Virus genome (UHGV): UHGV-0140151 | Reading direction: 5' to 3' (one strand) | From: a virus | Length of the DNA: 16,798 nt | In this document: positions 974-11,356 of the stretch, one piece after another | Numbering within the stretch: position 1 is the first letter of the stretch | Layout: each line of letters starts with the position of its first letter | The notes under the pieces: model-generated | The model's database searches: none | Seen by the model: the letters and a program-made list of their open reading frames with translations, nothing else | Told to the model about the DNA's origin: nothing | Translations under genes and position numbers: made by a program

Positions 974-1388
974 AGTTACGGCCTCACAATCAGGTTTAAC
1001 AACCTGCTACCCGCTGTCAAACAGGTGGCAGGACGTGACAGGGTTGACAGACTGGCGATTGTGAAACCAGCAGGCCGAAGCCTCCCCATCACGCCCCACC
1101 ATAATTTGGGCGTAACGCGGTTTAACGGACACAAAAATACCGCAATATCGGAAATCTGCGGTTGTCCGCACAATCATTCAGGCTGTCAAACCTGGTCGCA
1201 GAATTTGCTACGACGGCATGAATATAAGCCTGAACATTAGAAAGATCAACAGAATTTTTATCAGATGCTGTTTTTTGTGACGATGTAGATCATACATTCC
1301 CGATTAGAAACATCAATTTAATTTTCTAACACATAATTACGAGCGATGATTTTTCCGCCGCACAGTTATTGTACAGTCAATCGCAACA

Positions 1389-3558: not shown

Positions 3559-5244
3559 TTAATTATTGCTCATCACAAATTTTGCAAAGTTGATTAATTG
3601 TTCTTGCGTCCAGTTTTCCGGATCGTCACCGGACGACAACGGCGCGGATTCGTACATACCATGCTCGTTGTTTTGCTCTGATTCATTCGCCTTAAACTCT
3701 TTGATCATTGTGTTGAGAGTGTCATCGTCGATACGAAGCTGTTCGTTGAACAGATAACGCATAAACGCGTCGCTACCCGCCAGTTTCGGGTTGTTCTGGA
3801 TCTGGTCCATTATTTGCGAGATGACAGCTACGAAGTTGGCGCGCGCATCCAGCTCTCGGTTTTCCTCTTCCTGGATAGCTGTGTTCATTGAGTTGAATTG
3901 CACGTCATAAGGACGGTTTTTTTCGGTGTAAACCTTCCCGTATTTATAAGCGAGGTGAATGTCATGAAGCCGATAAATAGTCCGCTGGGCGGCCTGTCTG
4001 ATCCAGTTCGCGCGTAATGCGGCCTGGATAGCTGTTTGCTGCCAACCGCCTTCTCCAAGTCCACCACTCATCTGATCAGCCCAGCCAAGCATTGTTGCGT
4101 CAATACCGAGGCTTGCCGCGAGCTGTCGGAGATGAAACATAACGTCTTCGATACCACTGATATCTGCGGGTATAGATTGCGTATCAATGGTGATCCCGTT
4201 CTTCCCATCCCCCATGACAGGTATCAGATGGTTAAGTACAGACGGGAGAGCATTAGAATTAATCGACCGTTGCGCTACGAGGTCGCTATGACGCTTCAGT
4301 GCCTGGCTGACCCCGCGCGTATAATTCGCCGCGTTTACCGGATCTATCGTGTTCGTTGTGAGTGCAATCAGGCGATCAATTTTTGCAGCGTTGTTTCGCG
4401 TTGCTTTCAGCGCAGCAAGCGCGGCACATAAATTCAGGTAGGGTTCATAACTGTATTCAAGAAACGACGTACCGTAGTTCTGCGTCTCCATTAACGGCTT
4501 GTCCTGCTGTTCACTAAGCAAGGAATAGCCTTTAGTGCCGTAAGTTACTGGCATTACTTTATGCTGAGGCGTCCAGTACGGGTTTTTCATGGAAACCAGA
4601 TTCCACGGTTCGGTTATAACCCTGCGCAAAGTATGCGTATCCAGAATGTAATCACCGCTGAATCCGACAAGTTGGCTGCCGCGATAAAACTCCTGAACGA
4701 AATGAGGGAGCGTGTAATAGCTCGACTCAATTCCAGTTATCCCCTTCCCTTGCTCTGCATATGGACGGATATACGACACACCGAAAATAGCCATGATCAT
4801 GGCCCACGATGGCAGGCCATCATTAATCATTGAGCTTAAATCAGCGGTCAATTCCTCACATCGACTTACAGCCTCCTTATCCGCCCCATTTTTCGGAGCG
4901 AGAATAAATGCGAGGCCTGTTTTTTTTGATGGAGCCAGAGAATGCGCAATGTGAATGTTTAATGCTGTGGAGATTGTCGGGCTTTTCGCCATCGTCTCCA
5001 GTATGTTGTATTTTTGCAGGCGGTCACTCGGTAATTCTGCCGATATAGATACTGTATCCGCCGCGCTTGTCATGCCATCGCTATTGCTCCCCAGGATGCC
5101 AGGACGCAAGGCGGACAGGCCAGAACGAGCAACGACGCTATGCCCGCTCGTAAATACGACCGGATCGGCAGGCGTAACATCACCACCGCTGAAGGCTTTC
5201 TTCAATGCCGACAGAAAGCCCTTGTTTTTGTCTTTCGTTGCCAT
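3559..5244 (-). CDS. putative phage portal protein (or other large head protein)
   Basis: 561-aa ORF first in a tightly packed minus-strand pair; size and position consistent with a portal protein. Assignment is by context only. Confidence 0.4.
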   Translation of the reverse strand: MATKDKNKGFLSALKKAFSGGDVTPADPVVFTSGHSVVARSGLSALRPGILGSNSDGMTSAADTVSISAELPSDRLQKYNILETMAKSPTISTALNIHIAHSLAPSKKTGLAFILAPKNGADKEAVSRCEELTADLSSMINDGLPSWAMIMAIFGVSYIRPYAEQGKGITGIESSYYTLPHFVQEFYRGSQLVGFSGDYILDTHTLRRVITEPWNLVSMKNPYWTPQHKVMPVTYGTKGYSLLSEQQDKPLMETQNYGTSFLEYSYEPYLNLCAALAALKATRNNAAKIDRLIALTTNTIDPVNAANYTRGVSQALKRHSDLVAQRSINSNALPSVLNHLIPVMGDGKNGITIDTQSIPADISGIEDVMFHLRQLAASLGIDATMLGWADQMSGGLGEGGWQQTAIQAALRANWIRQAAQRTIYRLHDIHLAYKYGKVYTEKNRPYDVQFNSMNTAIQEEENRELDARANFVAVISQIMDQIQNNPKLAGSDAFMRYLFNEQLRIDDDTLNTMIKEFKANESEQNNEHGMYESAPLSSGDDPENWTQEQLINFAKFVMSNN

Positions 5245-5476
5245 GATTCACCGCAAAAGGTTTCCGATTTCGTGGCAGCTTATCCAGTGTGTGATTTCAT
5301 CAGTAATTTTTCGTTGTTTTCACCATATGCTGATGTTTTTTCATATGCGGAAATGCTTTTCCAAAAACGCAACAACCAAACAAAAAAGTCATGTTTATAA
5401 ACATTTTTGTTGTGTTTTATATCTTTTGTGTTACCATTCTTGCCGCCCATGATGGATAAATTGCATAAGGAAACTT

Positions 5477-5659
5477 GTGAAGTATTCAGAGTTCAAACGC
5501 TGGTTAATCCAGCAAGGGGCAGAGTTCAGGAAAGCGCCTGGTGGCGGCAGTCATCAGAAAGTGAACCTGAACGGAAAGCGGTCGGTTTTCCCGGACCACG
5601 GTTCAAAGGAAATGCCTGAACCGCTACGCAAGAAAATAATGAAGGACCTGGGGCTTTAA
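5477..5659 (+). CDS. hicA: HicA-family mRNA interferase toxin
   Basis: 60-aa ORF with GTG start preceded by AAGGA. Sequence (GSHQK...GKRSVFPDHGSKEMPEPLRKKIMKDLGL) recalls E. coli HicA; immediately followed by hicB. Confidence 0.85.
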   Translation: MKYSEFKRWLIQQGAEFRKAPGGGSHQKVNLNGKRSVFPDHGSKEMPEPLRKKIMKDLGL

Positions 5660-5689
5660 GCCCCAGCCTTTTTCACTAGGAGCTTCTCT

Positions 5690-6121
5690 ATGTTTAACTA
5701 TCCGGTAAAACTGGAGCGCGACGACAAAACCGGCGCGTATGTCGTATCATGCCGCGACCTACCATTGTTTAATTCCGTGGGTGACTCAGTTGAAGAAGCG
5801 TTGCTTGAGGCTGGTTATGGATTGGTCGCAGCGGTTGCGATTGAGATTGAAGAACGCCGACCTGTTCCCACTGGTAGCGAGCCAAAAGAAGGTGAGTACG
5901 TTGTCTCTTTGCCAGTGCTACCAGCAATGAAGGCTGCACTCCACAACGCGATGATAGAAACCGGCACACGCAAAGCAGAGTTGGCGCGCAAACTCGGCAA
6001 AAATGGAACACAGATTGATCGGCTTCTCGACGTCGAACATTCATCGAAAGTTGAAACTGTCGAGCTGGCACTGCATCAACTGAATAAAAATATCGCCGTA
6101 TCTGTCACACCAATGCGGTGA
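5690..6121 (+). CDS. hicB: HicB-family antitoxin
   Basis: 143-aa ORF with AGGAG Shine-Dalgarno. HicB-like N-terminal domain and C-terminal HTH (RKAELARKLGKNGTQIDRLL). Its stop codon TGA (6119..6121) lies inside the IS-end-like repeat copy. Confidence 0.85.
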   Translation: MFNYPVKLERDDKTGAYVVSCRDLPLFNSVGDSVEEALLEAGYGLVAAVAIEIEERRPVPTGSEPKEGEYVVSLPVLPAMKAALHNAMIETGTRKAELARKLGKNGTQIDRLLDVEHSSKVETVELALHQLNKNIAVSVTPMR

Positions 6122-6147
6122 CTGCTCCCCGCCCTGGCTGGGCGAGG
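6118..6147 (+). repeat. solo copy of the IS200/IS605-type subterminal hairpin (gtgactgctccccgccctg...ggcgagg)
   Basis: 19-nt exact match to 7717..7735 (the end of the tnpB element), followed by the same imperfect palindrome ccccgccc-N-gggcgagg. Confidence 0.55.
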
Positions 6148-6293
6148 ATTTACGGGGTATTTGTTAAAAACGCTCTATTCAAAGAAGAAATACCGAATCC
6201 CCCGGAGGTTATCCGGGGTGTCCGGTCGCCAGGTCAGGTTTCCAGCCCAAAATCGCTTTGTTCTGTTTTGGCTTCGAACATCGTGAAGTTAAG

Positions 6294-6310
6294 CCCTCCC
6301 TCCCCCCCCC
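6294..6310. repeat. homopolymeric C tract (ccctccct + 9 C)
   Basis: Directly visible: ccctccctccccccccc. Lies about 85 bp upstream of the putative -35 of the cargo operon. Confidence 0.9.
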
Positions 6311-6391
6311 ATTTTTACAGGATAAATATCAACCGAATTTATCTCATCGACATCTCTAATCGAAATCAGTGCTACGCCCAGTTTACTAAAC

Positions 6392-6419
6392 TTGCAGTTT
6401 AATAAAAAATTAGTATCAT
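6392..6419 (+). promoter_or_regulatory. candidate sigma70-type promoter for the XRE / 252-aa operon
   Basis: TTGCAG (6392..6397), 16-nt AT-rich spacer, TATCAT (6414..6419); GGAGGG Shine-Dalgarno at 6430..6435 precedes ATG 6441. The -35 match is weak. Confidence 0.3.
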
Positions 6420-6440
6420 GGTGGATATCGGAGGGTGGTG

Positions 6441-6896
6441 ATGAAAACATCTTATTTGACAATTTTAGCATTTCATATTCGAGACCTTCGCGAGGAGAAA
6501 GGAATCACCCAATTAGACATAGCGAACAAGCTAGGTATGACAAGTGCTGGTTGGGGGAAAATTGAAAATGGCAAATCGGCTCTCTCAGTAGAGAATATGT
6601 TAAAATTTTGCAAGATTATGGATATAGATCCATGCGTCCTACTTAACATATCTACAGAGTCCGCACGGATGTTAATTGAAAAAGGCTGGGTAGTATCTTA
6701 TTCACCTGTTGAGCGTGATAATCTTATAGATGGGAAAAATATATATACCAAGCTACATACAATGAATAATATTATGAGGAAATTTGTTGGTGAGCATTTG
6801 GAGGAAATATTAACAAGAGAATATAAAGACAGCATAACAAAATGCTCAACAATTTATATGGTTATTGTCAATAAGTTAGGTGTAAACATTATTTAA
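6441..6896 (+). CDS. XRE-family helix-turn-helix protein with a C-terminal domain of unknown function
   Basis: The ORF track starts at GTG 6435; ATG 6441 is preferred because of the Shine-Dalgarno spacing. HTH motif (ITQLDIANKLGMTSAGWGKIENGKSALSVENMLKFCKIMDID). AT-rich codon usage unlike the flanking genes. Confidence 0.75.
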   Translation: MKTSYLTILAFHIRDLREEKGITQLDIANKLGMTSAGWGKIENGKSALSVENMLKFCKIMDIDPCVLLNISTESARMLIEKGWVVSYSPVERDNLIDGKNIYTKLHTMNNIMRKFVGEHLEEILTREYKDSITKCSTIYMVIVNKLGVNII

Positions 6897-6913
6897 GCAA
6901 GTGGAGTGTGGAT

Positions 6914-7666
6914 ATGGCTTATCGCGCAGATAGAGATTTAACATTTTTATCGCAGTGCAGCGATTGTGATCTTGATGATCTGGTCAATCTGTTGATTTAT
7001 GACAACGATGGAAAAAAACGCTGGACTGAAGAGTTATCAAACAACCCACTATATAAGCAATTTAGACCTCAACATAGCTTATACTGGCGTGAAATTGCAG
7101 CCGAAATCCAATGCTATGGTGGAAATACATTTGCAACATTGTTGCGTGGTGGAAAAGGAGTTTACTATAAAGAAATTCTTATTGATGTGTGTAAAAGGCT
7201 AAAAGTAAACTTTAATTCTGAAAGCGAAGTGGATGTGATTGAGAGAAATCTTCTTATGAAGATTTTAAGTGATGCTTTAGATAAAATGCCGCAGCAAGAC
7301 ATAAAAGAACTTGCTTTAGAGTTTGGTTTAGTAAACTTAAAAACATTCAATCGTGAAGCGATGCTGGCTGCAATACAATATATTTTTAATAGTGGCGGAT
7401 TTCGATCATATCAAATTACAGTTATGTTAGCCAATGTTATACTAAAGGCATTGATCGGTCGTGGTTTAACAATTGCAGCAAATGCGACTTTAGTTAGAAT
7501 AGTAAGCCTTTTAGCCGGTCCAATTGGATGGGCAATAACGGCCGCATGGACATTAGTTGACATTGGGGGCGCAGCTTATCGCGTTACAATACCTGCAGTG
7601 ATCCAACTAGCCGTTCTCAGAAGTAAAATAAACAATAATATAAAAGTTGATGACATTATTTTCTGA
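6914..7666 (+). CDS. hypothetical protein with a C-terminal glycine-rich hydrophobic (membrane-associating) region; possibly YaaW/UPF0174-like
   Basis: The ORF track starts at GTG 6908; ATG 6914 is preferred (GGAG 7 nt upstream). Sits 18 bp after the XRE gene. C-terminal segment GRGLTIAANATLVRIVSLLAGPIGWAITAAWTLVDIGGAAYRVTIPAVIQLAVL is hydrophobic and Gly/Ala-rich. Family resemblance is from memory only. Confidence 0.7.
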   Translation: MAYRADRDLTFLSQCSDCDLDDLVNLLIYDNDGKKRWTEELSNNPLYKQFRPQHSLYWREIAAEIQCYGGNTFATLLRGGKGVYYKEILIDVCKRLKVNFNSESEVDVIERNLLMKILSDALDKMPQQDIKELALEFGLVNLKTFNREAMLAAIQYIFNSGGFRSYQITVMLANVILKALIGRGLTIAANATLVRIVSLLAGPIGWAITAAWTLVDIGGAAYRVTIPAVIQLAVLRSKINNNIKVDDIIF

Positions 7667-7674
7667 TTAAAAAT

Positions 7675-7698
7675 GGGGCATTGCTGCCCCTTTCTTTC
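7675..7698 (+). terminator. intrinsic terminator of the cargo operon
   Basis: Stem ggggca / tgcccc with loop ttgc, followed by tttcttt; located 9 nt after the stop codon at 7666. Confidence 0.55.
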
Positions 7699-7700
7699 AC

Positions 7701-7900
7701 GCTGCATACCCGTTAGGTGACTGCTCCCCGCCCTGTCGGGCGAGGCTTCCCACTTCTCAGGCCGCAACCGTCTGTGTGACGGATTTACGCTGGCCTCCAT
7801 GGGCAGAAACGACGAGTCCCGCCGCTTGTAATTCCAGTATGCCCTTGCGTTTGATGTTGAGCGCCGCGTTGATATCGCGGTCATGTTCAACTCCACACTC
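7701..7900 (-). ncRNA. putative TnpB-associated omega RNA (reRNA) spanning the tnpB 3' end and right-end hairpin
   Basis: In characterised TnpB elements the guide RNA is made from the 3' end of tnpB plus the right end, with the guide read from flanking DNA. A strong hairpin is present at 7726..7745. Extent is inferred, not observed. Confidence 0.3.
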
Positions 7901-9045
7901 TGGACACTGCCAGATGCGCTTATGTAATGGCATCTCCGACATTTTGTGACCGCAGCAGTGGCAGGTTTTCGAACTGGCGAACCATTGATCCAGTTTCAAC
8001 AGATGCACACCTTTCTCTGCTGCTTTGTATTCCAGTTTTGTGATGAATCCAGACCATCCAGCATCGCCTATCGCACGAGCCAGATGGTGATTTTTCGTCA
8101 TATTTGCCGTTTTCAATGTCTCGACAATTACCGCTTGGTTTTCGTCAACAATTGCACGAGAGAGCTTGTGTTGAAAATCAGCACGGGCATTCGTCACCCG
8201 TTCATGTAAGGCCGCAAGACGGATTCTGGCCTTTTTACGGTTCGCGCTTCCCTTTTGTTTACGGGATAGCGCTTTTTGTTTGCGTCGCAGATTACGGCTG
8301 GCATTGATGAGATGGCGGGGATTCGCAATTTTTGCTCCGTCAGACCTGATGGCGTAGTGCTCAAGCCCCATATCCAGGCCAGTAACTGTTGATATCAACG
8401 TGGGTTTTGCCGGAGCTTCCAGACCATCATCGCAAAGTAGCGACGCATAATATTTACCCGTTTCTGAACGGGTGATAGTAATGCTTTTCAGCTTTCCATG
8501 AAGTTCACGATGAAGGCGTGCTTCTATCGGGGCCAGTTTGGGGATTTTGATGGCATTATCCAGCACCTTAATCCCGACACAGTGGTAGCTCGATTGTTTT
8601 CCGTGTTTACGTTTAAACGTCGGGAACTGCGCTTTCAGCTTCGGATTAAAAAAGTTGGAAAATGCCACATCAAGATTGATTACCGCCTGTTGCAATGCCA
8701 TTGAGTCAAATTCTTTGAGCCAGGCATATTTACGGGACTTTTTGGCCACAGACAACAACGGTTTCAGATCGTTACGCGGACTTAAATTTACTCCGTGTCT
8801 CTGGTAAGCGTGTTTTTTGATGTGAAGAGCTTTATTGTACGCAAAGCGTACCGCGCCGAACTGGGCATTGAGATACTTTGCCTGTTCCGGTGTTGGATAG
8901 ATGCGTACTTTTGTTGCTCTTAACATAGTCACTGCTCATTGGTACAGGTTTTTATGCTAACACCGTAATAATATTTTTAAAGCCCTATGGGCTTTTCCGC
9001 CTTTCCTCCCCGCCCGCATTGGGCGAGGGTTCTCGGCGGTTTTTC
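7717..9045 (-). mobile_element. IS200/IS605-family insertion sequence carrying tnpB only (no tnpA)
   Basis: TnpB ORF flanked by subterminal imperfect palindromes (7726..7745 and 9006..9028, both ctccccgccc-N-gggcgagg). The left boundary is set by the point where identity with the 6118 copy begins; the right boundary is approximate. Confidence 0.7.
7757..8932 (-). CDS. tnpB: TnpB (IS200/IS605 OrfB-family, RNA-guided nuclease-type transposase accessory protein)
   Basis: 391-aa ORF with N-terminal MTMLRATKVRIYPTPEQ, RuvC-like motifs (GLDMGLEHYA; EYKAAEKG) and a C-terminal zinc finger (CHCCGHK...CPECG). Confidence 0.9.
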   Translation of the reverse strand: MTMLRATKVRIYPTPEQAKYLNAQFGAVRFAYNKALHIKKHAYQRHGVNLSPRNDLKPLLSVAKKSRKYAWLKEFDSMALQQAVINLDVAFSNFFNPKLKAQFPTFKRKHGKQSSYHCVGIKVLDNAIKIPKLAPIEARLHRELHGKLKSITITRSETGKYYASLLCDDGLEAPAKPTLISTVTGLDMGLEHYAIRSDGAKIANPRHLINASRNLRRKQKALSRKQKGSANRKKARIRLAALHERVTNARADFQHKLSRAIVDENQAVIVETLKTANMTKNHHLARAIGDAGWSGFITKLEYKAAEKGVHLLKLDQWFASSKTCHCCGHKMSEMPLHKRIWQCPECGVEHDRDINAALNIKRKGILELQAAGLVVSAHGGQRKSVTQTVAA

Positions 9046-9398
9046 GCTGAAACCCAGTTTACGGTCTGTTCTTTGGCCTGGTCGAGTGTCAAAAATTCAC
9101 CAATATATTGAGATATGCCTCTCAAAGCATCGATGAACTCCATTTGTGATGATTTAGTAAATGCACCACTAAGGAAGTCAACAACAATTTTAGGCGTTTC
9201 TTGTGCCGCCGGTTGCACTTCCTCTTCTTGCTGTTGCGCTGGATTATTCGATGAACCAAGCCCCAGCTTCATCATCACTTCAACGATCCGCACGCCAATA
9301 GTGACACGTTGTACCGCAGTCGCGCTTTTTTGCGCTGACATCAGCTCAGACAGTTCTTTGCCTAAGCTAAGGCGCTCCGTTACTGATATTTTCACCAC
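8985..9398 (-). CDS. hypothetical phage protein whose 3' end is encoded by the IS left-end hairpin (chimeric or truncated)
   Basis: 137-aa ORF overlapping the upstream gene by 7 nt. Its last 16 codons (REPSPNAGGEERRKSP) and stop are encoded by 8985..9035, which lies within the IS end. Confidence 0.5.
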   Translation of the reverse strand: MVKISVTERLSLGKELSELMSAQKSATAVQRVTIGVRIVEVMMKLGLGSSNNPAQQQEEEVQPAAQETPKIVVDFLSGAFTKSSQMEFIDALRGISQYIGEFLTLDQAKEQTVNWVSAKNRREPSPNAGGEERRKSP

Positions 9399-11356
9399 AC
9401 GCCCCCTTGTTGTATCTCTGCCAAAATGTTGATCAGGTGATCGGCTGCCGCACCAACAAGTGACTCGTTCTCATCATATCGACCTGCGTTGATAAGAACA
9501 TTAGCTGCCTCCTGAATGCGATCAAACTCCGCTCTAATCACCGTCAAATCACGGGACGTAAACTGCAACGGCACGGATTTCAGATATTCCAGCGCACTGT
9601 CCGCCTCCTGATCAGCCTCACTAACGACTGGCCCATCTGAACCTGTATCAGACTCTTGGGGGGATTCAGGTTCAGACTCAGGTACTGGTTCTGGTACTGG
9701 TTCTGGTACTGCTTCCGGTGCCTGATCTAATGTCTGTTCAGCTTCGACTACTTCTGATTGATTCTGAAGCGCGTCATAGATATCCATTATAAAAAGGTTC
9801 TCCCCATCTCCAAGTGGATAAGCGACGTTAGGAAATGCTTTGCGGAAGAGGATTTTTATCTGCGCCTTAAAGGTTTTCAAGTCGCTTCCAAACAGATCAA
9901 CATAGCCATCAATATGGTTCGACATACTGGACGCAACCAATTCGCCTGCAATCTCTTTCAATTCATCGTCACCAGGGAGATATAGCAACTCGTACTGACT
10001 GACTTCTTCGTCTGTCAGTTTGCGGTCATACGTAATGATTCCGTGACGAGCATATTCGTAATACGGATCAGCCTGATCAGGACGGTCAAGTACAGCTTTA
10101 TTTCCTTCAGGAACCGCACCAACACCCGCTGGGCGAGATTGGAGCGCATAGCGATATTTACCAACCTCCAGGGGATCAGGATGTGATTCTGGTTGTGGTT
10201 CCTGTTCAGGCTGCTGCTGATCAGTTGGCTCAGGCTGGCCCGGCAACACATCCACTTTGTATTGATCAGCATTATGTTCACGATAGGCTTTAAGTAATTT
10301 GGTTGCAGCATCCGCTGAACTCCCACCTTTAACAGCACTGACATCAATACTGAAATTGCCTTCTGGTGCCTCAATCGTGACAAAGCTATCACTGCCTGAC
10401 GTGACATACTTAACTACAGCACCATTATCCAGCGTTGTTTGGCCTTCTGTAGCAAGATTATGTTTTATGTGTCGCAGTTGATCATTGAAGGCACGCTCTT
10501 TAGTTCCTTGGCTCTTAGCTGACAATAAATTATCGCGTTTAGCCTGCAATTCCGCGTTAAGGGCTTTTTGTACGTCTAATTTATTCTGCATATCATTGAG
10601 TGTTGAGCGTTTCTCTGCCAGCCCCCGCTGTGCGTCTTCAACCTGCTCAATCAGCACAGAACGTTCTTCTGCCAGCTTGTCGGCTTCATTGAGATACCCC
10701 TCAATATCAGCCTTCATTTTGTCCTGGCGCTCCTTTGCTTTTTTGAATTTTGCACTATTACGCTCAATGAGGTTAGAAAGCGCCTGGCATACCTGGCTCA
10801 GAGATACATCACGCCCACCGATTGGCGCAACAACATGCGTAACGTTTCTTTTGTTAAGAAGAAACTGAAACGCAACCAGCTCGTCATCCCCTTTAATTCT
10901 TGTGCCGTCTGCGGTTGGAGAATGGAAAATTATGCTTGTCGTTTGCCCATCGGTTAGAGGTATTTGTGCTGTTACAACAGGGATATTTGCAACCCGGCGC
11001 ACGCGCCCAATGATTGCCCCACCGATACTATTACGTCCGTCTTCATATTCTCCTGCCTCATCCGTACCCGCAGCAATGTCAGTGCCATTCAGGCCGCGAT
11101 TAAGCGCCCGGACGAATGCTCGCATTGTTTGCGCTAACCGCAATTTTGTTGTGGTTATAGCTTCGAACATTGCCTCATTGGTAGTTACCAAAATTTCGTT
11201 GCCCATATAGGCCAGCTCGATATCTTCCAGCGTCGCAGGCTCGATAAGTAAATCATCCTCGGTGATATCTTCCGCCACCCAACGATTAGGCGTATATCCA
11301 GTGAGCGTATCTGCAAAAGTGGACTGGATATTTATTCGAATAGGTTTCTTTATCAT
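9392..11356 (-). CDS. large acidic phage protein with coiled-coil and Pro/Glu-rich repeats (possibly a virion internal or Dar-like protein)
   Basis: 654-aa ORF whose start overlaps the upstream stop (ATGA). Contains PEPVPEPVPESEPE and PEQEPQPE low-complexity segments and a central coiled-coil. A DarA-like role is a guess from the operon context (holin-like gene upstream). Confidence 0.6.
   Translation of the reverse strand: MIKKPIRINIQSTFADTLTGYTPNRWVAEDITEDDLLIEPATLEDIELAYMGNEILVTTNEAMFEAITTTKLRLAQTMRAFVRALNRGLNGTDIAAGTDEAGEYEDGRNSIGGAIIGRVRRVANIPVVTAQIPLTDGQTTSIIFHSPTADGTRIKGDDELVAFQFLLNKRNVTHVVAPIGGRDVSLSQVCQALSNLIERNSAKFKKAKERQDKMKADIEGYLNEADKLAEERSVLIEQVEDAQRGLAEKRSTLNDMQNKLDVQKALNAELQAKRDNLLSAKSQGTKERAFNDQLRHIKHNLATEGQTTLDNGAVVKYVTSGSDSFVTIEAPEGNFSIDVSAVKGGSSADAATKLLKAYREHNADQYKVDVLPGQPEPTDQQQPEQEPQPESHPDPLEVGKYRYALQSRPAGVGAVPEGNKAVLDRPDQADPYYEYARHGIITYDRKLTDEEVSQYELLYLPGDDELKEIAGELVASSMSNHIDGYVDLFGSDLKTFKAQIKILFRKAFPNVAYPLGDGENLFIMDIYDALQNQSEVVEAEQTLDQAPEAVPEPVPEPVPESEPESPQESDTGSDGPVVSEADQEADSALEYLKSVPLQFTSRDLTVIRAEFDRIQEAANVLINAGRYDENESLVGAAADHLINILAEIQQGGVW
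9680..9715. repeat. three tandem 12-bp units (ggtactggttct) inside the 654-aa gene
   Basis: Directly visible; encodes in-frame PEPV repeats on the minus strand. Confidence 0.85.

Follow-up and report, generated by a model that had tools for sequence, protein, structure and literature searches.

A two-gene operon in a phage-plasmid genome is flanked by two direct copies of a sequence that resembles the end of an IS200/IS605 element. This raises the question of whether the simplest known transposons have captured and spread a defence operon, as the bracket seemed to suggest, or whether the two repeats have separate histories. The window analysed here is the whole 16,798-nt stretch of the virus genome UHGV-0140151. 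The first-pass annotation had read its bracket either as a remnant of an earlier element or as a composite structure in which an extra end hairpin carries adjacent cargo. Our comparisons favour separate histories. We put a probability of about 85% on the explanation as a whole, in which the window is a P1-like phage-plasmid, the repeats are products of separate events, and the cargo is bracketed by coincidence, the events having fallen close together in a variable region.

The repeat and its three hairpins

There are exactly two occurrences of the 19-mer GTGACTGCTCCCCGCCCTG in the window (6118-6136 and 7717-7735), and they share the plus strand. Each copy is continued by the second arm of the palindrome, GGGCGAGG, which extends the copies to 6118-6147 and 7717-7745 in direct orientation, as the first-pass annotation had described. 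No match to the 19-mer was found in 200 dinucleotide-preserving shuffles of the window (0/200), which rules out a chance origin of the repeat. The loop is 5 nt long in the left copy (TGGCT) and 4 nt long in the right copy (TGTC). A third hairpin in the same orientation, at 9006-9028, forms the opposite end of the tnpB element. All three hairpins (6125-6147, 7724-7745 and 9006-9028) fold as predicted when modelled as single-stranded DNA.

On the right side of its hairpin, the left copy is similar to the left end, and not to the right end, of the IS family, and 6125-6162 is 74% identical to 9006-9043. An alignment of 6090-6420 with 7689-8020 found no homology outside the hairpin. The left copy is therefore neither the 3' end of a diverged tnpB nor a scaffold for guide RNA. 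The conserved stretch downstream of the left copy is the stump of a ddrB-like gene. The flanks to the left of both copies are similar (CACACCAATGCG and CATACCCGTTAG), and this signal was taken as chance because it is not conserved at the flanks of seven other right ends. An Rfam scan of the window at the gathering threshold gave nothing at the IS ends. The only hits of that scan were a C4 antisense RNA and its targets at 1021-1227.

The resident IS200/IS605 element

The right copy is the right end of an intact ISEc46-like IS200/IS605 element of 1330 bp on the minus strand (7717-9046). The element comprises the right end (7717-7745), tnpB (7757-8926), the left-end hairpin (9006-9028) and a left-end outer segment (9029-9046). 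Its boundaries are set by a clean empty site, ...CCCGTTAG|CTGAAACCC..., in four sibling plasmids (L001, L002, L011 and L021), and its termini are common to five further copies at other loci. Comparison with the empty site shows that insertion took place 3' of TTCAG without target-site duplication. This single target, or TAM, lies at 9047-9051 on the minus strand (CTGAA on the plus strand), and CTGA(A/T) adjoins the left end in all six copies examined. Both ends have subterminal imperfect palindromes on the same strand, there are no terminal inverted repeats, and the two termini differ from each other.

TnpB has 389 aa and matches ISDra2 TnpB (E 4e-78), with the GLDMG, VETL and HDRD motifs aligned and the RuvC motifs retained. 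Pfam domains HTH_OrfB_IS605, OrfB_IS605 and Cas12f1-like_TNB were found, and the NCBIfam model guided_TnpB scored 350 bits. No tnpA was found in the element or elsewhere in the window, and the element is considered non-autonomous because only tnpB lies between its ends. The insertion also altered a neighbouring gene. In the minus-strand gene downstream of darA (8985-9398), protein alignment showed that the last 5 residues are rewritten and 14 are added, so that the product has 137 aa compared with 122 aa in siblings.

ISEc46 of Escherichia phage RCS47, which is also P1-like, is 85% identical to 7717-9046 over the full length and shares its termini and TTCAG-type target. The best matches to the resident element are 85-95% identical, the 94.7% match being a copy in another P1-like plasmid, and the resident element is a diverged member of this group at a new site. 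It shares with IS608 and ISDra2 the hairpins located subterminally on one strand, an insertion site 3' of a short target that is not duplicated, and cleavage sites that match 4 nt 5' of each hairpin; its TnpB is homologous to ISDra2 TnpB over the full length. It differs from them in lacking tnpA, in its target (TTCAG, not TTAC or TTGAT) and in its shorter distances, the left cleavage site being 18 nt from the hairpin and the right-end tail 7 nt long.

In IS608, the cleavage site and guide pairs are TCAA/GAAT and TTAC/AAAG. By inspection of the sequence, the pairs of the resident element follow the same pattern, with TCAC/GAAG at the right end and TCAG/GAAC at the left end. The pair is TTAG/AAAC in the tnpA-bearing parent type described below and TTAA/AAAT in the left copy. 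The ISEc46 family and this parent thus provide clean natural guide and target pairs that extend the IS608 rule.

The left copy on the hicB stop codon

The left copy has a different composition. Sequence comparison, folding and the same architecture at independent loci define a unit of 46 nt (6118-6163, active strand minus), made up of a right-end tail GTGACTG, the hairpin at 6125-6147 and an outer segment of the left-end type, ATTTACGGGGTATTTG. The comparisons identify the left copy as a one-hairpin relic that derives from a sister IS200/IS605 element, one with both tnpA and tnpB, probably by collapse. The first-pass idea of a remnant is thus correct for this copy. The finding that it had named as a refutation, a palindrome at 6118 unrelated to IS ends, is not borne out, as this palindrome is related to them. 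The relic is not the circle junction of an excised element. If right and left ends had abutted, two hairpins would be present and nothing would separate the right-end tail from the left-end outer segment, whereas the order of parts here is left-end outer segment, hairpin and right-end tail.

The relic lies on the stop codon of the antitoxin gene hicB (5690-6121, plus strand; Pfam HicB-like_2), and the TGA stop (6119-6121) comes from the relic tail. In silico removal of 6118-6163 restores ...ATG CGT TAA, and the protein still ends in ...TPMR*; MR* is the terminus of all HicB homologues compared. The TTAA at 6164-6167 (minus strand) was taken from the guide and target table as the probable target of the parent insertion, because the guide of the relic is AAAT and the IS608 rule would make TTAA its cognate. 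On this reconstruction, the true empty site would read hicB followed by ...ATGCGTTAAAAACGC... without the hairpin. No relic-free hicB site with homologous downstream DNA was found among the siblings, and similarity to the hicB homologues of Enterobacter, Klebsiella and Citrobacter is lost directly after the stop codon, so the empty site is given by reconstruction only. At two loci (L025 and L030), the hicB stop reads cgg/cgc-TGA-C and no hairpin is present, and part of the relic tail could therefore be native sequence. The left-end outer segment has diverged, with about 10 of 16 positions matching the parent consensus, and the loop TGGCT is unlike either end of the known full-length copies.

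The relic is found at the hicB stop of every sibling with an identical sequence whether the cargo or a ddrB-like gene follows, and it was assigned to the plasmid backbone for this reason. It is 100% conserved in 8 of 15 E. coli siblings. Together with its position directly on the stop codon, the stability of its stem (-9.4 kcal/mol as DNA) and the location of other relics just downstream of genes, this might suggest that the left copy has been co-opted by the locus that hosts it, perhaps to stabilise the hicAB transcript at its 3' end or to terminate it. Such a role could be added to an origin as a relic. We regard it as unlikely: the terminator scan did not call the hairpin and no T-run follows the stem, the conservation may reflect the recent common ancestry of the plasmids alone, and hicB homologues manage without the left copy.

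The relic is probably also inactive as a right end. Its tail presents TCAC, and its only guide is AAAT, so that two of three pairing positions are mismatched. In IS608, removal or mismatch of the right-end guide abolishes the synaptic complex.

One-hairpin relics at other loci

The one-hairpin architecture recurs at independent loci (L008, L012-L016, L018, L033-L036, L042 and L043), with independent copies in Phaseolibacter, Aliidiomarina, Serratia, a gammaproteobacterial MAG, Providencia, a lambdoid prophage and IncI/K/FIB plasmids. A Phaseolibacter prophage has two identical copies 6.4 kb apart and one Providencia plasmid has three. No full-length parent was found near these and the other relics in the 8-11.5 kb covered per locus or in the scanned part of the Providencia plasmid. 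Both right-end loops (TGTC) and left-end loops (GCATT) occur among the relics. The number of copies per genome is very low, with two or three of differing loop types in one prophage or one plasmid and one in the window.

A parent-type element is intact at an E. coli locus (L037), which was found through the plasmid collection within a mislabelled E. coli chromosome. It carries tnpA and tnpB and has exactly the ends of the relic, and its TnpA of 141 aa matches NF033573 (E 1e-41). TnpA of this family scores 142 bits against transpos_IS200 and 39 bits against REP_Tyr_transpos, for which the cut-off is 80. This score and the low copy number rule out that the repeats are REP/RAYT sequences. A search of IMG/VR for a full-length left end with 'GTTTACGG' returned one-hairpin relics only.

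The collapse of such elements can be followed in hicA. This toxin gene is intact in the window (5477-5659, plus strand; Pfam HicA_toxin, E 1.3e-9), and in three siblings (L010, L011 and L020) it contains an insertion of the same IS family after TTCAG (5485-5489). L011 has the clean insertion, L020 has the same insertion with a 40-nt deletion, and L025 has a one-hairpin relic at the same hicA flanks with the same rare left-end variant, GGTTGTTTG. This series shows collapse in place directly, and the relic at hicB probably formed by the same mechanism.

Two other origins of the one-hairpin units were considered. They might be a recurrent product of TnpA synapsis, for example of a polymerase template switch between dimer-held hairpins, or the smallest mobilisable derivative of IS200/IS605 elements. 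This is speculative and rather unlikely, but it would explain one-hairpin units at many loci in several gammaproteobacterial genera, with matched guide and target and often no parent nearby. Alternatively, the 46-nt unit could be a minimal mobile single-hairpin PATE or MITE that was moved in trans by the TnpA of its parent and reached hicB as such. The presence of the same architecture and a matching target at many unrelated loci in several genera would agree with this, as would the two identical copies in Phaseolibacter and the three in Providencia with no parent found nearby. We consider it improbable, because the mixture of loops fits independent crossovers in either arm better than a single master, and because the hicA series shows collapse in place. 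The very low copy numbers also speak against a mobile unit, as do the binding of two hairpins by a TnpA dimer and the mismatch between the relic's tail and its guide.

Like PATEs and MITEs, the relic is non-coding, is found in many genomes and has kept sequences of the IS ends. PATEs are similar to minimal IS elements that are non-autonomous; they often encode guide RNAs and keep both end hairpins. The relic differs in having a single hairpin with one tail from each end and not two hairpins around a short interior, and a solo LTR is closer to it in origin. A limited literature search found no description of one-hairpin relics of this kind. They seem to be a common and largely unannotated end state of the ISEc46-type IS family, and in annotation they are open to confusion with functional ends, REP-like repeats or terminators.

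The cargo cassette and its boundaries

The first-pass annotation had placed the operon exactly between the two copies. The cargo extends from about 6316 to about 7668, as judged from the homology breakpoints relative to three siblings (L002, L017 and L021), and its edges are set in from the left copy by about 170 nt and from the right copy by about 50 nt. The interval between the copies also holds a GC-rich hairpin at 6193-6218, an 80-nt stump at 6235-6315 and a terminator-like hairpin of cassette and backbone at 7675-7690 (plus strand; terminator scan). The stump is the 3' end of a minus-strand gene with a ddrB-ParB domain, identified by BLAST against L002, in which this gene is intact (461 aa, L002 2335-3720). 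The window at 5200-6315 is 98.7% identical to L002 1301-2414 by BLAST. The hairpin at 6193-6218 is terminator-like on the minus strand in the terminator scan and is conserved in L002, and it probably terminated the replaced ddrB-like gene.

The swapped-in cassette (6316-7668, plus strand) contains xre (6435-6896) and jukA/DUF3944 (6908-7666), with the Pfam domains HTH_3, DUF3944 and Ubiq_cyt_C_chap. The 252-aa protein matches PADLOC JukA (E 5.6e-70, residues 1-244 of 252) and has DUF3944 and a Cbp3-like chaperone domain. Profile searches with the upstream gene, which encodes an Xre HTH protein, gave no match to JukB. The absence of JukB agrees with the published single-protein Xre-JukA variant. 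An Escherichia Xre-JukA operon in which Xre is paired with jukA has been tested (Li et al., bioRxiv 10.1101/2022.09.17.508391), and the cassette resembles it in the full-length match of JukA and in the Xre regulator upstream. By homology, the cargo is thus a Juk anti-jumbo-phage cassette of the Xre-JukA type, with putative activity for this allele. Points of difference are the absence of JukB and the location in the antirestriction (dar) region of a phage-plasmid, where the cassette replaces a ddrB-like gene. In P1-like phage-plasmids, the stretch between hicAB and the darA operon is a well-resolved variable slot, in which a ddrB-like gene of the antirestriction region is exchanged for an Xre-JukA anti-jumbo-phage cassette.

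Independence of the left copy, the cargo and the IS

Four siblings (L001, L010, L011 and L020) have the same cargo and left copy with an empty site at the IS position, and three others (L002, L017 and L021) retain the left copy but have another gene where the cargo would be. The left copy, the cargo and the IS thus vary independently among siblings and are not one indel. Homologous Xre-JukA cassettes at other loci have no hairpins of this kind.

A composite transposon is highly improbable in the light of these comparisons. In such a structure, the ends at 9006-9046 and 6118-6147 would allow TnpA to move the IS and the cargo as one piece of single-stranded DNA of about 2.9 kb. The orientation would suit this, with all three hairpins on one strand; the distal copy retains a 7-nt tail with the cleavage motif TCAC, and in the IS608 literature anything between two ends is mobilised. 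However, at this same locus some siblings have the cargo and no IS, and others have the distal copy and no cargo; the first-pass annotation had itself named cargo without the pair of repeats as evidence against a composite. The edges of the cassette lie inside both copies. The composite junction was absent from 5,426 E. coli genomes, 72,556 plasmids, 50,697 phages and IMG/VR, and a search of IMG/VR for the junction between cargo and right end gave no match. The distal copy also lacks the guide tetranucleotide of a functional right end: its guide is AAAT, whereas GAAG is needed to present TCAC, and a missing or mismatched guide would be expected to prevent synapsis as in IS608. The locus is a caution against over-reading direct repeats of IS ends.

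Proposed order of events

Three separate events account for the present arrangement, and the order given here for the first two is inferred. In an old event, an autonomous L037-type IS200/IS605 element that encoded both tnpA and tnpB probably entered the minus strand 3' of a TTAA that overlapped the original stop codon of hicB. A deletion between its two near-identical end hairpins would then have collapsed it to the 46-nt relic. The relic tail would have supplied the new TGA stop with HicB unchanged, and the relic would have become fixed in the plasmid lineage. In a second event, the Xre-JukA cassette replaced most of the ddrB-like gene by recombination at about 6316 and about 7668.

In a third and recent event, a tnpA-less, ISEc46-like element entered on the 3' side of TTCAG (9047-9051), left the target unduplicated and clipped the end of the gene downstream of darA. 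This presumably took place by single-strand 'peel-and-paste' transposition with TnpA supplied in trans. From published TnpB biology, the minus-strand flank just 3' of the right end (7701-7716, CTAACGGGTATGCAGC) is predicted to serve as the guide portion of the TnpB guide RNA, and TnpB with this RNA should recognise the empty allele. All 16 positions of the flank are identical to those that adjoin TTCAG at the empty site of L002 and L021.

The repeated hairpins and their phage-plasmid context

The direct repeat is real, and the bracketing of the cargo by its two copies is coincidental, the outcome of three separate events in a variable phage-plasmid region. These events are an old IS insertion that then collapsed to a relic, a cassette swap that brought in the Xre-JukA genes, and the recent arrival of a related IS. 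All components of the bracket are of known kinds. The 19-mer GTGACTGCTCCCCGCCCTG occurs on the plus strand at 6118-6136 and 7717-7735 and nowhere else in the window, and a match to it was found in 0 of 200 dinucleotide-preserving shuffles of the window. The repeat of the 19-mer plus palindrome arm reported in the first-pass annotation therefore stands. The complementary arm GGGCGAGG continues both copies, giving imperfect hairpins at 6125-6147 (5-nt loop) and 7724-7745 (4-nt loop). A third hairpin lies in the same orientation at 9006-9028, and single-stranded DNA folding formed all three.

The phage-plasmid in the window is P1-like, as confirmed by Rfam matches to C4 antisense RNA and the a1/b1 targets of this RNA (1021-1227, minus strand), which represent the P1-type immunity region. 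The gene order is the portal gene, hicA (5477-5659), hicB (5690-6121), an Xre HTH gene (6435-6896), a DUF3944 gene (6908-7666), tnpB (7757-8926, minus strand), a small gene (8985-9398, minus strand) and a darA-like head protein gene. The collections searched contained no record of the complete 5400-9400 segment; several sibling plasmids carried informative parts of it. In the sibling L001 (NZ_CP165739), the DNA upstream (80-300) of an IS inserted in hicA is unlike that of other siblings and has a 1386-nt hypothetical gene in place of the portal gene, pointing to a rearrangement associated with the IS.

The right copy is the end of an intact IS

The right copy belongs to an ordinary, intact IS, of which it forms the right end. 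The siblings L001, L011, L002 and L021 have the empty site ...CCCGTTAG/CTGAAACCC..., and the window is longer there by 1330 bases; the IS therefore extends from 7717 to 9046 (the boundary is ambiguous by one nt, a G). Five further copies were found at unrelated loci, in two P1-like plasmids (one of them phage RCS47, whose copy is annotated ISEc46) and in F-like and I-like plasmids. All five share termini beginning with GTGACTGCTCCCCGCCCTGTCGGGCGAGGCTTCCCAC and ending with GGGCGAGGGTTCTCGGCGGTTTTT(C/T)G, and CTGA(A/T) adjoins their left-end side. Viewed on the tnpB strand, the IS was inserted 3' of TTCAG without duplication, which is the signature of the IS200/IS605 family. The full-length TnpB (389 aa) matches ISDra2 TnpB (E 4e-78), and all three RuvC motifs align between the two. 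The resident IS has no tnpA, and the element is therefore non-autonomous. Beyond the right end, the next 16 nt of the tnpB strand, CTAACGGGTATGCAGC, match the empty allele beside TTCAG in L002 and L021 at every position, as the published TnpB retention model would lead one to expect. Downstream of darA, the IS rewrote the end of a conserved 122-aa gene: the five C-terminal residues, NGYAA, are replaced by 19 from the IS left end, and the product is now 137 aa long.

The left copy is a one-hairpin relic

The left copy (6118-6163) is like the family left end and unlike the right end in the sequence to the right of the hairpin, reading GGGCGAGG-ATTTACGGGGTATTTG compared with GGGCGAGG-GTTCTCGGCGGTTTTTCG in the family left end. 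Its architecture is a right-end tail GTGACTG, one hairpin, a 16-18-nt left-end outer segment and a short conserved motif. Pattern scans and BLAST located independent loci of this type in an E. coli lambdoid prophage (L008), at two sites in a Phaseolibacter prophage, in Aliidiomarina, Serratia and a gammaproteobacterial MAG, at three sites in one Providencia plasmid, and beside yacAB in IncI/K/FIB plasmids. Most of them have GTTTACGGCGTTTTTCG/CTAAG, the exact left end of an autonomous E. coli relative, L037. This relative has a divergent 141-aa TnpA (NF033573, E 1e-41), a TnpB 88% identical to that of the window, and the same right end as the window IS. Both right-end (TGTC) and left-end (GCATT) loop types were found among one-hairpin units, the pattern expected from deletions with crossover in either end-hairpin arm.

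Collapse to one hairpin is shown directly by a lineage at hicA. L011 has a clean insertion after TTCAG (target at window 5485-5489), L020 has this insertion with a 40-nt adjacent deletion, and in L025 a one-hairpin unit has exactly the flanks seen in L020 and keeps the rare GGTTGTTTG left-end variant of the lineage. Because of this series, the left-end-like flank and the mixed loops elsewhere, we interpret 6118-6163 as a relic of one hairpin, a 'solo hairpin' comparable to a solo LTR, which supports the earlier suggestion of a remnant of an earlier element. The wide recurrence of such relics of this IS family is only a mildly new point. Their frequency leaves room for formation by a TnpA-dependent route, or for relics that are themselves mobile, which we consider improbable.

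Removal of 6118-6163 gives ...CCA ATG CGT TAA AAA..., with the same protein end, ...TPMR*, as the present hicB; MR* is the C-terminal end in all hicB homologues examined. The parent IS would have inserted on the minus strand 3' of a TTAA overlapping the original hicB stop, and the TGA stop of the present hicB would be supplied by the relic tail. The site is a reconstruction, as no true relic-free empty site was found. At the stop, two hicB homologues have TGAC and no hairpin, and part of the relic tail may therefore be native sequence.

The cargo is an independently swapped Xre-JukA cassette

The first-pass annotation placed the cargo exactly between the two copies and proposed that it might move with the IS as a composite. 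From hicB to about 6315, left copy included, the window is 98.7% identical to L002, L017 and L021, which have a 461-aa ddrB-ParB-domain gene on the minus strand in place of the Xre/DUF3944 pair. The last 80 nt of that gene are kept in the window (6235-6315). Since homology with these siblings stops at about 6315 and restarts at about 7669, the swapped cassette is 6316-7668; it stops short of the left copy by about 170 nt and of the right copy by about 50 nt, and so does not fit the repeats exactly. The IS at 7717 is missing from L001, L010, L011 and L020, each of which has both the cassette and the left copy. The siblings carry left copy, cassette and IS in differing combinations, and the three therefore vary independently, an outcome that the first-pass annotation itself named as refuting the composite. 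The left copy is backbone sequence, not a cargo boundary. At the left breakpoint of the cassette is a poly-C/CT tract, CCCTCCCTCCCCCCCCC (6296-6313), that varies between siblings in length and sequence (cf. L001) and may be a hotspot of recombination or slippage.

The PADLOC JukA profile (E 5.6e-70) matches the full length of the 252-aa cargo protein, which has DUF3944 and Cbp3-like domains, and the gene upstream encodes an Xre HTH regulator. Li et al. (bioRxiv 10.1101/2022.09.17.508391) reported protection against phiKZ-like jumbo phages by an Escherichia jukA that is paired with an Xre regulator, with JukA alone being sufficient. Diverged Xre-JukA cassettes occur in another P1-like lineage, after icd/antirepressor genes, and on an E. 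coli chromosome, and neither has IS-end hairpins nearby.

The published mechanism of IS608 also bears on the composite. In IS608, the four bases 5' of each hairpin pair with the cleavage sites and thereby present them (C_L TTAC with G_L AAAG; C_R TCAA with G_R GAAT), A+16 pairs with T-3 and A+17 with T-4, and guide loss abolishes the synaptic complex. On inspection, this positional rule gave perfect matches in the ISEc46/L037 family: cleavage site TCAC with guide GAAG at the right end of both branches, TCAG with GAAC at the ISEc46-like left end, and TTAG with AAAC at the parent (L037-type) left end. The left-end side of the window relic also matches; compared with the parent, position 4 has undergone a compensatory change, to TTAA with AAAT. 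The sole guide of the relic, AAAT, mismatches the relic tail TCAC at two of three pairing positions, so the relic is predicted not to serve as an extra right end and the composite to be immobile.

Related hairpins in other replicons

Three relics of the tnpA+tnpB-parent type, L042 (about 1519-1560), L043 (about 36330-36375) and L036 (1501-1551), lie in one 103-kb Providencia plasmid (CP096299.1). No full-length parent was seen in record positions 1-102738, and about 250 nt from one of the relics is a full-length tnpB element that is only distantly related (41% aa identity). The L008 relic (2501-2546) lies between the Q antiterminator gene and tRNA genes, approximately where lambdoid late-operon terminators lie, and is also present in many IMG/VR contigs. 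The 4.9-Mb L037 record NZ_CP141089.1, labelled 'plasmid unnamed1' in the plasmid collection, is evidently an E. coli chromosome, and its tnpA+tnpB relative adjoins a 686-aa ORF. Parent-type left-end hairpins persist in Salmonella virulence and large IncFIB plasmids, for example in L038 (2494-2550; pSLT, beside spvD), where tnpB is truncated, and in L039, where no tnpB was detected. A 52-nt query gave 618 Salmonella matches, mostly to these hairpins.

Comparison of L011, L020, L025 and L010 over window 5485-5790 placed the IS family of 7717-9046 in hicA of cargo-carrying siblings, after TTCAG 5485-5489. Deletions beside the right end of this IS stop exactly 3' of another TCAG, at TTCAG 5525-5529 in L020 and L025 and at CTCAG 5785-5789 in L010, and look as if TnpA had joined the right end to a matching target close by.
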